Source: Eledone cirrhosa (taxonomy: Eukaryota). Taken from it: 64,000 bases of DNA. Under the pieces are notes generated by a model. That model made no database searches. It had not been told where the DNA came from and worked only from the letters and a program-made list of their open reading frames with translations. Below are positions 1 through 47,549 of the stretch, in pieces (positions within the stretch are counted from its first letter, which is position 1; the number at the start of each line of letters is the position of its first letter). A program made the translations under genes and the position numbers. The stretch is from NCBI GenBank assembly GCA_964016885.1, contig OZ024759.1, positions 19,840,001 to 19,904,000 on the forward strand. Reading direction: 5' to 3'.

Positions 1-161
1 ACCAAAACACTGCTTCTCTAAGTAACTCATGCTTAGCATTGCCTTTTAAACCAGCTACTATTCTATTGCACGAGGAAAGTCAATCACACTTGACCTTCTA
101 AACAACATCGCAGCCTTCTTGGCAAAATCACTACTAACCTCCTTGAATTACTGGTATACAT

Positions 162-492
162 TCATCATCCTTATACCAGTAATTGTTTCTACTTTAGGCA
201 CAAGGCCAGCAATTACCCAGTGCATTACTGGTACTTCATTTTATCGACCCCGTAAGGATGAAAGGCAAAGTCAACCTCGGCAGGATTTGAACTCAGATCG
301 TAAAGGGACGTAACTATGCTGGAAAACATGGCGTCCGACCCTGCTTTCCAGCATAGTTACGTCCCTTTACGATCTGAGTTCAAATCCCGCCGAGATTGAC
401 TACGGGGTCGATAAAATAAAGTACCAGTAATGCACTGGGTAATTGCTGGCTTTGTGCCTAAAGTAGAAACAATTACTGGTATAAGGATGATG
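162..492. mobile_element. Foldback (inverted duplicate) SINE family A insertion
   Basis: 163-324 is the reverse complement of ~345-491. Contains B-box GAGTTCAAATC and GGGGTCGATAAAATAAAGTACCAG. AATTACTGGTATA is directly repeated at 146-158 and 471-483. Confidence 0.85.
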
Positions 493-664
493 GATGTCAT
501 CAGGCTGCAGCTATCAAATTACATAGTTTCTGTAATATATATATATATATACATATATATAATGCCATGTCCTATGGATGACCGAGGACTGCCCACCCAA
601 GGTACTGTTACACAGTTAAGTTCATAATGGCGCACATAATAAGCCATTAAGTACACATACACAC

Positions 665-14662: not shown

Positions 14663-15147
14663 TTAACCCTTTAGTATTCACATTACTCTATATATACTAT
14701 TATATTTTCACGTTAAAGGCTTTAGCTCGCATAATTATCTCACATTATATCGAATCTCATAGATTCGATATAATTGTTTCTACTTTTGGCACAAGGCCAG
14801 CAATTATCCCAGTGTATTACTGGTACTTTATTTTATCGACCCCAGAAGGATGAAAGGCAAAGTTAACCTCGGCGGGATTTGAACTCAGAATGGCAAATCC
14901 CGCCAAGGTTAACTTTGCCTTTCATCCTTACGGGGTCGATAAAATAAAGTACCAGTAATACACTGGAATAATTGCTGGCCTTGTGACAAAAGTAGAAACA
15001 ATTATATCGAATCTATGAGATTTTGAAAGTATTTATTTTGAGACCAATACCTTAACATCAGTTTGAGCGACCAGTTACAGCCAGTTTCAACAGAAAGAGG
15101 TAGAGAATTCTGGCTGGTTTTGGCTGGTTTGAACATTAAAGGGTTAA
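14663..15147 (+). mobile_element. piggyBac-like (TTAA) MITE interrupted by a foldback SINE
   Basis: TTAA-CCCTTTAGTATTCA ... TGAACATTAAAGGG-TTAA (12/14 TIR match); second partial copy at 26655-26846. Confidence 0.75.
14753..15022. mobile_element. Foldback SINE family A insertion with TSD
   Basis: 14753-14881 is the reverse complement of 14895-15022; ATTATATCGAATCT is directly repeated at 14744 and 15001. Confidence 0.85.
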
Positions 15148-26472: not shown

Positions 26473-26654
26473 AATAATTGTTTCTACGTTAGGCACAAGG
26501 CCAGCAATTACCCAGTACATTACTGGTACTTTATTTTATCGACCCCGTAAGGATGAAAGGCAAAGTTAACCTCGGCGGGATTTGAACTCAGAATGGAAAG
26601 GTATGGCCCTTGCCATTCTGAGTTCATATCCCGCCAAACGTAGAAACAATTATT
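26473..26654 (-). mobile_element. SINE family A with a short, internally deleted foldback arm
   Basis: GAACTCAGAATGG ... CCATTCTGAGTTC turn; AATAATTGTTTCTACGTT and AACGTAGAAACAATTATT form the inverted ends. Confidence 0.75.
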
Positions 26655-26846
26655 TTATATATACTATTATATTTTAATGGTTAAGGCTTTACCTCACATA
26701 ATATCTCACATAATATCGAATCTATGAGATTTTGAAAGTATTTATTTTGAGAACAATACCTTAACATCAGTTTGAGCGACCAGTTACAGCCAGTTTCAAC
26801 AGAAAAAAGTAGAGAATTCTGGCCGGCTTGAACAGTAAAGGGTTAA
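26655..26846 (+). mobile_element. TTAA MITE, 5'-truncated (family of 14663-15147)
   Basis: High similarity to 14690-14757 plus 15015-15147; ends AAAGGGTTAA. Confidence 0.8.
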
Positions 26847-27132
26847 TAAACACGTGTAGATATATACATATATATACGTATATATATATATACATGAAAA
26901 AAATTGGGATGTACGAATAAAATCGTCTCTCATATTTATTGTAATAAAACTCCAGATGAACAAAGACTGTACACTGCTTCATGTCTGATACAGAATAGGT
27001 TGGCAGATTTATAATCAACCAAATTTTCTCAATTGTATTATATATATATATATATATATGTACACACATACATACATATGTGTGTATAAATAAATACATA
27101 CATAGATATATATATACACATGTATATATGTG

Positions 27133-31049: not shown

Positions 31050-31057
<8 letters not shown>

Positions 31058-31210
31058 ATACTTTGGGAGGGTCATGTTGCCAATAAGAAACACACGCACC
31101 AGTTGCATGTGTTTCTTATTGGCAACATGACCCTCCCAAAGTATTACAATATCGGTTTCAACACACGTTTTCAGATAAAGAATCTTGCTAAACAAATTCA
31201 GAAACGAAAT
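31050..31210 (+). mobile_element. Foldback element family H2 (pLTR-like) with 3' tail
   Basis: 31050-31093 inverted against 31109-31152; same family as 35343-35535. Confidence 0.7.
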
Positions 31211-33272: not shown

Positions 33273-33554
33273 CAAAGGAATTGTGGTAAGGAATCAGATG
33301 GACCATAACGCACCAGAGTACTCAAAACTTAGGGTAGTCGAGTGGGAAATAGGAAAAAGTAAAGTAAGACCCCGACGGCAGAGCTCAAGCCGTTTCTACG
33401 GCTATTTCTGAACTAAATTAGAATTTTTAGCCTGATGAATCAGGCTAAAAATTCTAATTTAGTCCATCAGGCTAAAAATTCTAATTTAGTCCAGAAATAG
33501 CCGTCGAAACGGCTTGAGCTCTGCCGTCGGGGTCTTACTTTACTTTTTCCTATT
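33271..33554 (-). mobile_element. Foldback element family H4
   Basis: 33348-33554 palindrome with CTGATGA near the turn; tail shared with 35114 and 42430; flanked by (TA)n. Confidence 0.7.
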
Positions 33555-35115: not shown

Positions 35116-35308
35116 CAAAGGAAATGTGGTAAAGAACTAGATGGACCATAATGCACCAAAGTACTCAATACTTAGGGTAGTAGAGTAGGTAATAGGAACG
35201 AGTAGGACCCCGACGGCTGAGCTCAAGCCGTTTCGACGGCTAATTCTGGACTAGTCCAGAATTAGCCGTCGAAACGGCTTGAGCTCAGCCGTCGGGGTCC
35301 TATTCGTT

Positions 35309-35313
<5 letters not shown>
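35114..35313 (-). mobile_element. Foldback element family H4
   Basis: 35192-35313 near-perfect palindrome centred on GGACTAGTCC. Confidence 0.75.
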
Positions 35314-35342
<29 letters not shown>

Positions 35343-35349
<7 letters not shown>

Positions 35350-35535
35350 ATGCTTTGGGAATGTCATGTTGCCAATAAGAAACACATGCACCAGTTGCTT
35401 TCACTTCAATTGAAGTGAAAGCAACTGGTGCGTGTGTTTCTTATTGGCAACATGACCCTCCCAAAGCATAACAATATCAGTTTCAACAGACGTTTTCAGA
35501 TAAAGAATCTTTCTAAACAAATTCAGAAACGAAAT
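35343..35535 (+). mobile_element. Foldback element family H2
   Basis: 35343-35477 palindrome centred on ACTTCAATTGAAGT, followed by GAAA; ~58-bp unpaired tail. Confidence 0.75.
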
Positions 35536-39184: not shown

Positions 39185-39463
39185 ATAATTACAACAGTGA
39201 CATAAACAGGTACTCAAGTTTCGTTGGGCTCTGGTCCCCAATTTGACAGGCTGAATGAATTGGGGCCCAGAACCCAATGAAACTTGAGTACCTGTTTATG
39301 TCACTGTTGTAATTATCAAAGAAGAAAGACATACCACGTATGCTAACCAACCTGACTGCTATTTCTAGCAGGCTGGGAATCAACCATAAGAGATTCTCTC
39401 TCGAGTTCGTTGTCAGTGATGATCGTGTTTCGCGGCCTATGTCTCAGATTCCAACGGTGGTTT
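39185..39463 (+). mobile_element. Foldback element with hammerhead 3' half
   Basis: 39185-39316 palindrome; right arm has GAAAC-TTGA-GTA directly after a long imperfect hairpin. Confidence 0.65.
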
Positions 39464-40402: not shown

Positions 40403-40520
40403 AGGAATAAAATCGTTTGACAAGAGACTTTGATTCTCCATCATAAATTTCTGTTTATATATATATATATATATATAAGGAGTAAAATCGGTTGACAAGA
40501 GACTTTGATTCCCCATAAAT
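40165..40520 (+). repeat. Five copies of a ~55-bp unit separated by variable (TA)n (another at 39752)
   Basis: TAAGGAATAAAATCGTTTGACAAGAGACTTTGATTCTCCATCATAAATTTCTG. Confidence 0.9.
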
Positions 40521-40734
40521 ATATATATATATAAATATATGTATGTATATATATATATATATATATACAGAAATTTATGGGGAATCAAAGTCTTTTGTCA
40601 ACTGATTTTATTCCTTACAAGTTGTTTCATCTGATTAGGTTATGGTTGTATACTCACAGATGGGATTAAATATGATCTGTATGCATCCATAGGTTTCTAT
40701 TCAGAATCCTCAGAGGAAAGTTAGTTGTTTATAA

Positions 40735-42343: not shown

Positions 42344-42511
42344 ATAGGAACGAGTAGGACCCCGACGGCTAATTCCAGAATTAGCCGTCGAAACGGCTTG
42401 AGCTCAGCCGTCGGGGTCCTACTCGTTCCTATTACTCACTCTACTACCTTAAGTATTGAGTACTTTGGTGCGTTATGGTCCACCTGGTTCCTTACCACAT
42501 TTCCTTCGTTA
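42344..42511 (+). mobile_element. Foldback element family H4
   Basis: ATAGGAACGAGTAGGACCCCGACGGCT inverted against AGCCGTCGGGGTCCTACTCGTTCCTAT; flanked by (TA)n. Confidence 0.75.
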
Positions 42512-44114: not shown

Positions 44115-46895
44115 GGAAAGGAGCTGATTGTCAGCTCAGACTAGAGAATCTATATTTTCACTGGTCTTTCTATTGCTGATACTATTTGTCAGTCACAATT
44201 CCTGGTATAAGGAAGGAGCTGATTGTCAGATCAGACCAAGGAAACAATGTTTCCATTGGTCTTTCTATAGCTGATACTATCTGTCAGTCACAATTCCTGG
44301 TATAAGGAAGGAGCTGATTGTCAGATCAGACCAAGGAAACAATGTTTCCATTGGTCTTTCTATAGCTGATACTATCTGTCAGTCACAATTCCTGGTATAA
44401 GGAAGGAGCTGATTGTCAGATCAGACCAAGGAAACAATGTTTCCATTGGTTTTTCTATAGCTGATACTATCTGTCAGTCACAATTCCTGGTATAAGGAAG
44501 GAGCTGATTGTCAGATCAGACCAAGGAAACAATGTTTCCATTGGTCTTTCTATAGCTGATACTATCTGTCAGTCACAATTCCTGGTATAAGGAAGGAGCT
44601 GATTGTCAGATCAGACCAAGGAAACAATGTTTCCATTGGTCTTTCTATAGCTGATACTATCTGTCAGTCACAATTCCTGGTATAAGGAAGGAGCTGATTG
44701 TCAGATCAGACCAAGGAAACAATGTTTCCATTGGTTTTTCTATAGCTGATACTATCTGTCAGTCACAATTCCTGGTATAAGGAAGGAGCTGATTGTCAGA
44801 TCAGACCAAGGAAACAATGTTTCCATTGGTCTTTCTATAGCTGATACTATCTGTCAGTCACAATTCCTGGTATAAGGAAGGAGCTGATTGTCAGATCAGA
44901 CCAAGGAAACAATGTTTCCATTGGTCTTTCTATAGCTGATACTATCTGTCAGTCACAATTCCTGGTATAAGGAAGGAGCTGATTGTCAGATCAGACCAAG
45001 GAAACAATGTTTCCATTGGTCTTTCTATAGCTGATACTATCTGTCAGTCACAATTCCTGGTATAAGGAAGGAGCTGATTGTCAGATCAGACCAAGGAAAC
45101 AATGTTTCCATTGGTCTTTCTATAGCTGATACTATCTGTCAGTCACAATTCCTGGTATAAGGAAGGAGCTGATTGTCAGATCAGACCAAGGAAACAATGT
45201 TTCCATTGGTTTTTCTATAGCTGATACTATCTGTCAGTCACAATTCCTGGTATAAGGAAGGAGCTGATTGTCAGATCAGACCAAGGAAACAATGTTTCCA
45301 TTGGTCTTTCTATAGCTGATACTATCTGTCAGTCACAATTCCTGGTATAAGGAAGGAGCTGATTGTCAGATAGGATCAAGGAAACAATGTTTCCATTGGT
45401 CTTTCTATAGCTGATACTATCTGTCAGTCACAATTCCTGGTATAAGGAAGGAGCTGATTGTCAGATCAGACCAAGGAAACAATGTTTCCATTGGTCTTTC
45501 TATAGCTGATACTATCTGTCAGTCACAATTCCTGGTATAAGGAAGGAGCTGATTGTCAGATCAGACCAAGGAAACAATGTTCCATTGGTCTTTCTATAGC
45601 TGATACTATCTGTCAGTCACAATTCCTGGTATAAGGAAGGAGCTGATTGTCAGATCAGACCAAGGAAACAATGTTTCCATTGGTCTTTCTATAGCTGATA
45701 CTATCTGTCAGTCACAATTCCTGGTATAAGAAAGCAGCTGATCATTTTATCAGTCTAAGGAAATAATGTTTTCATTAGTCATTCTATTGTTGATATTATC
45801 AATCCCCGGCCACAAGCTCGATGTGTTTTGGTTGATCTCGTTATAAAGAATTTTTCATTACAACAAATTTTTTTTATACCCCGTGAATTTCGTTATAATG
45901 GAATTTCATTGTATAAGAAAGGAGCTGATTGTCAGATAGGATCAAGGAAACAATGTTTCCATTGGTCTTTCTATTGCTGATACTATCTTTCAGTCACAAT
46001 TCCTGGTACAGGTAAACTTCCGTTATAACAAATTTTTTCAGTATAACAACATTTTTTTCAATCCTCGGCCACATGCTCGATGTGTTTAGGTTAATCTCAT
46101 TATAAAGAGTTCTTCGTTATAATGGAATTTCATTGTATAAGACAGGATCTGATTGTGAGACAGTATCAAGGAAACAATATTTCCATTGGTCTTTCTATTG
46201 TTGATATTATCTTTCAGTCACAATTCCTGGTATAAGAAAGGAGATGATTGTCAGATCAGACCAAAGAAACGATGTTTCCACTGGCCTTTCTATTGCTGAT
46301 ATTATCTACTGGTCACAATTCCTGGTATCAGAAAGGAACTGATTGGTAGATCAGACCAAAGAAACAATGTTTCCACTGGCCTTTCTATTGCTGATATTAT
46401 CTACTGGTCACAATTCCTGGTATAAGAAAGGAACTGATTGGTAGATCAGACCAAAGAAACGATGTTTCCACTGGCCTTTCTATTGCTGATATTATCTACT
46501 GGTCACAATTCCTGGTATCAGAAAGGAACTGATTGGTAGATCAGACCAAAGAAACAATGTTTCCACTGGCCTTTCTATTGCTGATATTATCTACTGGTCA
46601 CAATTCCTGGTATAAGAAAGGAGATGATTGTCAGATCAGACCAAAGAAACGATGTTTCCACTGGCCTTTCTATTGCTGATATTATCTACTGGTCACAATT
46701 CCTGGTATCAGAAAGGAACTGATTGGTAGATCAGACCAAAGAAACAATGTTTCCACTGGCCTTTCTAAGGCTGATATTATCTACTGGTCACAATTCCTGG
46801 TATAAGAAAGGAACTGATTGGTAGATCAGACTGAAGAAGCAATGTTTTTATTGGTCTTTCCCTTTCTGATACTATCTACTGGTCACAACTCCTGG
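44115..46895 (+). repeat. 95-bp satellite array, about 26 copies
   Basis: TATAAGGAAG at 44301, 44396 and 44491; two subtypes either side of the MITE interruptions. Confidence 0.95.
46009..46135. mobile_element. Tc1/mariner (pogo/Tigger-like) MITE with TA TSD; partial copy at 45798-45911
   Basis: TA-CAGGTAAACTTCCGTTATAAC ... GTTATAATGGAATTTCATTG-TA. Confidence 0.7.
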
Positions 46896-47464
46896 TACTT
46901 TATTTTATCGACCCTGTAAGGATGAAAGGCAAAGCTAACCCCGGCAGGATTTGAACTCAGAATGTAGAGGGCCATAGCTCTATGCTGCAAAGCATAGTGT
47001 CAGACACTCTATCGATTCTACTGTTAATCCACCACCCTTTAATAATTGTTTCTACTTTTGGCACAAGGCCAGCAATTACCCCAGTGCATTACTGGTATTT
47101 TATTTTATCGACCCCATAAGGATGAAAGGCAAAGCTAACCTCGGCGGGGGAATTTGAACTCAGAACATAAAGGGCCACGATTCTGGCCACAAAGCATAGT
47201 ATCCGACGCTCTACCGATACTGCCAATCCACCACCCTTTAATAATGATTTCTACTATAGACACAAGGCCAGTAATTTGGGGAGAGGGGAAAGTCAATCAA
47301 ATCAAACCCAGTGTATAACTGGTACTTTATTTTATAGACCCCTGTAAGGATGAAAGGCAAAGTTAACCTCGGCGGGATTTGAACTCAGAATGTAAAGTGA
47401 CATAACTATATGACACAAAGCATGGTGTCTGATGTTCTACTGATTCTGCCGATCAGCCACCCTT
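46893..47464 (-). mobile_element. Three head-to-tail SINE family A copies
   Basis: GATTTGAACTCAGAA-type B-box three times; each copy ends CCAC(C)CTT. Confidence 0.85.
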
Positions 47465-47549
47465 GGGTTGTAAATAATGAAATGGATGTTTGGGATGTTG
47501 TTCAGTGGTTTTTGATGTAGGGGAAGGGAGAAGTGGGTGAAGGGAGAGG

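Follow-up and report, generated by a model that had tools for sequence, protein, structure and literature searches.

In the accessible parts of the relevant reports, the class of mechanism considered here has already been described for R2 and L1. Among R2-mediated insertions (PRINT), snap-back 5′ junctions form a named class (PMC11371274, PMC11331408). The DNA ends made by L1 ORF2p self-anneal to give local inversions or inverted duplications with the TSD kept, and the available text of that study has two inverted duplications, each at the reciprocal (upstream) end and of somatic or experimental origin (10.1101/2024.12.14.628481). Inter-strand template switches of type 1-3-4-2 invert the spacers of inverted repeats (PMC5453318; cf. 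PMC8604942); as portrayed in the available portions of these papers, such switches are short-range and are linked neither to a TSD nor to a retrotransposon junction.

The SINE family examined here provides a large natural sample for the question of how non-LTR insertions acquire their second strand and 5′ junction. We analysed a SINE insertion at positions 14744–15022 of a 64,000-nucleotide stretch of Eledone cirrhosa DNA (the window) and its counterparts across the genome. A literature search that mostly covered material outside subscription journals returned no report of hundreds of natural SINE fold-backs with flank run-through, and none of the loop-orientation rule that we describe below.

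Structure of the focal locus

The focal locus comprises the following features.

14663–14757, plus strand: left part of the host MITE, up to the left TSD (aligned to the consensus of 28 genomic copies)
14744–14757, plus strand: left TSD copy, 14 bp, the last 5 nt shared with the inverted flank (repeat search)
14753–14774, minus strand: inverted copy of the SINE tail junction and the first 22 nt of downstream flank (inverted-repeat match to 15001–15022)
14772–14896, minus strand: antisense SINE arm running from the 3′ tail to SINE position ~67; it is the longer of the two arms at the turn (alignment)
14882–14893, unstranded: 12-nt loop of a recurrent turn, on the opposite strand to that at most loci (folding and turn comparison)
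14894–15003, plus strand: sense SINE arm, target-primed, 5′-truncated at ~80 inside the B-box, 3′ tail joined to the target (junction common to 19 other insertions)
15001–15014, plus strand: right TSD copy (repeat search)
15001–15147, plus strand: right-hand remainder of the host MITE, ending in TTAA (differs from the consensus at 1 of 133 positions)

The sequence is arranged as originally described: two copies of the 14-bp TSD ATTATATCGAATCT enclose the reverse complement of the flank and SINE 3′ half, followed by the forward half. The inverted flank is present but is 22 nt long rather than the 21 nt first given, and it overlaps the left TSD by 5 nt. The inverted arms (14753–14881 and 14894–15022) are 129 nt each, are 96% complementary, differing at 5 of 129 positions, and are separated by 12 nt; the whole palindrome of 270 bases has a folding z-score of −34.5, and none of 200 shuffles folded equally well. 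At the turn, 3 nt of pairing (14879–14881 with 14894–14896) close the 12-nt loop. The turn lies at SINE positions 67 and 80, with its end inside the B-box (~76–85). The antisense arm reaches position 67 and the sense arm only position 80, and hence the target-primed arm is the shorter of the two at the turn. Nothing points to a function of the product, which is a passive scar.

Several features tie this locus to the R2 snap-back class as presented in the accessible text. In both, the cDNA 3′ end would prime on the cDNA itself or on nearby DNA before the 5′ junction is made, antisense element sequence stands at the upstream junction (here 14772–14896, against sense sequence at 14894–15003), and the turn combines short pairing with a small loop (here 3 nt and 12 nt). 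The present cases differ in being natural, fixed insertions of a SINE with the TSD kept and, relative to the available R2 passages, in a frequent run-through of the tail and 15–154 nt of downstream flank and in a loop size of ~12 nt. A further difference concerns the strand of the loop, which a snap-back of the R2 type would place on the cDNA strand, where it lies at 29 of 33 orientable loci in this genome but not at the focal locus. Since this defining feature fails, the focal locus is not filed as a plain member of the snap-back class.

Compared with the L1 inverted duplications of the available text, the SINE fold-backs involve the cDNA end, duplicate the element itself and run to hundreds. 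L1 twin priming yields a 5′ inversion with RNA-derived sequence 5′ of the breakpoint and is not known to duplicate the 3′ half or to copy downstream flank. The focal locus resembles it in placing an inverted element piece beside the upstream TSD and departs from it in that this piece duplicates the 3′ 110 nt of the element and 22 nt of downstream flank. With the 1-3-4-2 switches, as described in the available portions of those papers, the locus shares an inverted repeat and an inverted spacer.

The SINE family and its target site

The SINE is a dispersed, high-copy element of ~190 nt whose 3′ tail is fixed and whose 5′ ends vary, present as full-length and truncated copies; the 13-mer of its core has 210,641 exact matches in the 3.0-Gb genome. 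Its TSDs start at the tail and vary in length, from 14 bp at the focal locus to 9–22 bp at other insertions. The SINE head holds motifs, picked by eye, that we take to be A- and B-box-like, and the element presumably resembles octopus tRNA-type SINEs. ARAGORN found 0 tRNA genes, and Rfam gave no tRNA match for a near-full copy. In the window, three minus-strand copies lie in tandem at 46890–47470, each inserted beside another's head, and SINE pairs within 450 nt in sampled DNA comprised 14 on the same strand, 3 head-to-head and 0 tail-to-tail.

The host was correctly recognised as a TTAA MITE. It is a 227-bp TTAA-ended repeat that has a consensus, TTAACCCTTT ends and short terminal inverted repeats, and it spans 14663–15147 with the insert. 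Among the best 29 of 41 listed matches to it, 28 have nothing inserted at the site, and in the remaining 1 an ordinary full-length SINE occupies the same junction; the MITE consensus holds no inverted segment. Across the genome there are 21 instances of the tail/target junction, namely the 2 focal arms and 19 other insertions, none of which has an inverted arm and whose TSDs, where readable by eye, are about 9–22 bp. Because the right focal arm has the same junction as these 19 insertions, it is the target-primed arm. The inverted flank is found neither in the 28 uninterrupted MITE copies nor in the 19 insertions, and the inverted segment abuts the TSD end. These data support an origin of the inverted flank with the insertion, and the abutment points to formation during insertion by cDNA snap-back.

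A second MITE copy in the window had been offered as a proxy for the empty site (26707–26734). This copy is indeed uninterrupted there and reads as quoted; as a proxy it is imperfect, reading ATAAT where both focal TSD copies read ATTAT and having lost its first ~40 bp to a fold-back that takes their place. Exact genomic matches to the internal MITE 19-mer number 11,577 in the common ATAAT form and 96 in the ATTAT variant, and only 2 of the first 30 variant matches are of the host's young type. We considered whether the T at 14746 proves a re-copying of the left TSD from the right junction, and rejected this argument. By eye, 12 of 13 informative other insertions carry the same left T, so that the SINE prefers such hosts and the base at 14746 decides nothing.

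The ATTAT variant in those 12 of 13 left TSD copies marks a strong sequence preference, which fits the (ATT)n tail, and CAC^ATTA sites in the MITE have been hit repeatedly by the SINE (L061–L081; L015, L021, L027). Separately, four MITE copies lying Mb apart on one chromosome (C18; L010–L013) have near-identical flanks, as in a larger repeat or segmental duplication.

Other fold-backs in the window

Two further SINE fold-backs and the second MITE copy were located in the window.

146–497, plus strand: independent SINE fold-back with a 13-bp TSD, a 26-nt inverted flank, a reversed loop and a 15-nt deletion in the sense arm (alignment)
26474–26653, plus strand: third SINE fold-back, inside the 5′ part of the second MITE copy, no TSD seen (read by eye)
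26655–26847, plus strand: second MITE copy, uninterrupted across the site occupied at 14744 (alignment)

The fold-back at 146–497 involves a different SINE variant, turn and flanks, and is thus an independent repeat of the focal architecture, as had been claimed. Its turn, at SINE positions 27 and 41, lies well upstream of the B-box, and that at the focal locus (67 and 80) ends within it; the original statement that both turns lie just 5′ of the B-box is not supported, and across the family the turns fall at 48–114. In the third fold-back the antisense arm is complete, the loop is short and the sense arm has a deletion of ~85 nt. It occupies a second MITE site that the SINE favours and that is likewise filled in L015, L021 and L027.

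Among tailed SINE copies, fold-backs number 3 in the window versus an unbiased rate of 1 in 156 elsewhere, and 0 of 82 tailed copies in unselected DNA are fold-backs. In about 400–440 kb around the window there is 1 fold-back, a canonical one, among about 74–82 tailed copies. Palindromes in general number 8 in the 64-kb window and 31 in 460 kb of sampled DNA, the non-SINE ones deriving from unrelated repeats. A regional hot zone or a badly assembled region was considered and rejected, given the single fold-back in the flanking DNA and a palindrome density less than twofold that of the sampled stretches. The three fold-backs of the window form a local cluster.

SINE fold-backs across the genome

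The genome has 1,091 places where two SINE cores lie head to head within 200 nt. The first 50 pairs, all from contig 1, contain 26 clean fold-back turns, and the other 24 are mostly nested independent copies. Extrapolating from 26 of 50 gives about 570 clean fold-backs spanning both cores, against 210,641 core copies. An earlier count of 1,321 loci was dropped, as 16 of 30 loci examined proved to be a head variant without a sense arm. We also collected a targeted pattern that requires a complete tail and a turn immediately 3′ of the B-box; it occurs at 96 places, of which 90 were fetched and 84 analysed. Both tails are present in 76 of the 84, and 43 of the 84 have a non-simple inverted flank (15–154 nt, median 49). 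Directly outside these 43 flanks, a TSD of 9–22 bp was found by script in 21 and none in 22; in all 21 the inverted flank is longer than the TSD, by 5–135 nt. The fold-back sets were chosen by pattern and are non-random. The architecture is a recurrent minority outcome with hundreds of cases and no local oddity.

Turn geometry and the orientation of the loop

Clean turns share a narrow geometry. In two lists of clean turns, 19 of 26 and 17 of 20 have loops of 8–18 nt, at many SINE positions; overlap is mostly 0–4 nt, and the cDNA ends at SINE positions 48–114, with one at 14. Given this scatter, a single RNA hairpin at the B-box was rejected as the determinant of the turn points. The 30-nt focal turn occurs exactly at 11 places, the focal locus and 10 others. 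Of these 10, four are canonical by script (L188, L192, L194, L202) and two more by eye, and none is reversed with a TSD.

If a cDNA folds back on itself, the arm that continues into the genuine downstream flank has to extend further 5′ than its copy. An orientation script was applied to all pattern-selected loci and the window, yielding 275 candidate arms with two-tailed palindromes counted twice; orientation was called from a non-simple TSD of at least 10 in 33 arms, the other 242 being symmetric, of simple sequence or lacking a TSD. Of the 33 orientable loci, 29 have a target-primed arm that extends beyond its partner at the turn, and so do all 21 TSD-bearing inverted-flank loci of the targeted set. 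The four reversed cases are L178, L336, the focal locus and 146–497, and L331, with an A/T-only TSD, is a further one. Among inverted-flank loci, both of those in the window are reversed, versus 0 of 14 elsewhere (14 canonical, stems 109–242 bp). Loop sizes at reversed loci are in the same range as at canonical ones. Confinement of reversal to long arms was considered and is contradicted by L336 (39-bp stem) and L331. In all 33 orientable loci the inverted segment starts −2 to +6 nt from the TSD end, partly by construction of the test; its overlap with the TSD is 1–6 nt in 26 of 29 canonical loci and 5 nt at the focal locus. Among fold-backs, the focal locus is unusual only in its reversed central loop.

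Proposed mechanism and alternatives

Calling the focal locus a snap-back insertion was right insofar as it is a real SINE fold-back, but a plain one-step snap-back is impossible, the target-primed arm being shorter at the turn. The reversed loop breaks the one-step model, and one further step is needed. We consider that the locus probably derives from one SINE insertion, in which a backwards copy of the 3′ half and 22 flank bases was made by a self-primed, unfinished cDNA and the loop was inverted later. First, the MITE would have been nicked at CAC^ATTA, the SINE reverse-transcribed from its tail, presumably by a LINE-encoded enzyme, and a staggered second nick made; the resulting junction is read directly in the sequence. 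Second, cDNA synthesis would have halted at SINE position ~67 and the RNA been lost, whereupon the free cDNA end could pair by 3 nt over a 12-nt loop and be extended through the tail and 22 nt of exposed downstream strand. Because all 21 TSD-bearing loci of the targeted set have an inverted flank longer than the TSD, the downstream top strand must have been resected or displaced. Third, the strand would have unfolded and annealed to the upstream overhang by 5 nt, which correspond to the observed overlap, and fill-in would leave the TSD, the inverted flank and the palindrome. Finally, and with least certainty, a later inter-strand template switch between the 129-bp arms may have flipped the 12-nt spacer.

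We infer this last step as an addition that rescues the one-step model. Arm divergence is 1.0–3.9% at the three reversed loci measured and has a median of 1.85% at canonical loci, which is weakly compatible with a later event. A later inversion is less expected in short stems, yet L336, with a stem of 39 bp, has a reversed loop. The coincidence that both reversed inverted-flank loci lie in this one window also counts against this account, as do the small share of arms that could be oriented (33 of 275) and the 22 of 43 inverted-flank loci in which the script found no TSD. Overall, later spacer inversion is likely to be a better account than either the opening of a hairpin or a rebuilding by template switch, which are discussed below. 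A read-through RNA as template was also considered, the focal inverted flank ending at a TTTT run, and was rejected since the inverted flank of 146–497 ends at no such run.

An unlikely alternative starts from the same snap-back and has the new strand ligated to the downstream strand, giving a closed hairpin end. Opening on the cDNA strand side (or replication and breakage) 22 nt into the flank, followed by joining to the upstream end, would then reverse the loop at formation. This route obtains the reversed loop and the shared turn geometry from one event and permits opening anywhere, including in the short reversed arms of L178, L336 and L331. Replication or fusion of unligated TPRT ends is known for L1 from the accessible part of one report (10.1101/2024.12.14.628481). 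Yet replication and breakage predict that about half of the loci are reversed, as opposed to the 4 of 33 seen, and breaks that all fall within ~150 nt of the tip would require a dedicated nuclease.

A broader and doubtful proposal would extend this route to the family, such that SINE cDNA regularly self-primes its second strand via a ~12-nt loop, is extended into the flank and can be sealed as a covalent hairpin end, the reversed loci being hairpins opened on the other strand. If this were true, self-primed second-strand synthesis would be a normal integration route whose leftovers are readable in hundreds of germ-line copies. 

The family sample displays a narrow loop size, preferred turn points and 15–154 nt of copy-through into the downstream flank, which together imply that the cDNA end was single-stranded and free and that the downstream strand had been resected or displaced. 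The longer-primed-arm rule and its few exceptions make the repair route testable, and the value of the data lies in this family-wide sample and in the reversed loop.

It is similarly improbable that an ordinary SINE insertion was rearranged, later or in second-strand synthesis, by a 1-3-4-2 template switch that replaced the SINE head. Here the TSD-ending upstream strand would pair through 5 nt with the opposite strand, jumping onto it 22 nt further downstream, copy the SINE backwards to position 67 and return at position 80. The focal form is exactly an inverted repeat with an inverted spacer, the product described in the available portion of PMC5453318. By eye, L328 and L334 keep the SINE head before such an inverted piece, and TSDs at this target site reach 22 bp. 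Set against this, the return point coincides, base for base, with a turn present at 10 other loci, which are canonical wherever they can be oriented, and the first jump would span more than 200 nt while starting exactly within the TSD at both window loci. L328 and L334 are themselves almost complete SINEs in which an internal stretch is duplicated in inverted orientation (head, antisense piece, sense again); their loop is in the reversed sense, and they may be products of a twin-priming-like process or of template switching.

An artefact of assembly or library, either a fold-back chimera or a loop mis-oriented between the arms, is very unlikely. It would suit the count of fold-backs, three in this window and 1 among 156 tailed copies elsewhere, and no public contig or read listed bridges the left junction; in Logan contigs and raw RAD reads other repeat copies dominate, and among the pieces listed, after a filter that drops records, none bridges the unique junctions. 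However, the arms differ at 5 sites, the outer junction has the TSD with its 5-nt overlap, and the same architecture is found on many chromosomes, where the 14 other inverted-flank loci are all canonical and hence non-random. The palindrome density of the window (8 per 64 kb versus 31 per 460 kb) likewise owes its other members to unrelated repeats.

Two independent head-to-head insertions can be virtually dismissed: about half of the genome's head-to-head pairs represent nested, independent insertions (24 of the 50 sampled lack a clean turn), but such pairs cannot yield a 22-nt inverted flank, a single outer TSD, arms sharing a variant or a turn without spacer DNA.

Further fold-back variants and hairpin repeats

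Seven fold-backs (L183, L293, L300, L326, L327, L330, L372) have arms from different SINE subfamilies, one of which has a longer G-rich middle; this suggests nesting at a shared junction or gene conversion. At nine loci (L124, L148, L163, L165, L194, L213, L221, L227, L308) the inverted flank is 80–270 nt long. L124 has host-left sequence on both sides and may mark a larger inverted duplication.

The window also contains hairpin repeats of at least 4 unrelated families, each lying beside a (TA)n run on one side.

31050–31152, 33348–33554, 35192–35313, 35342–35477, 39185–39316, 40476–40617 and 42344–42432: hairpin repeats beside (TA)n
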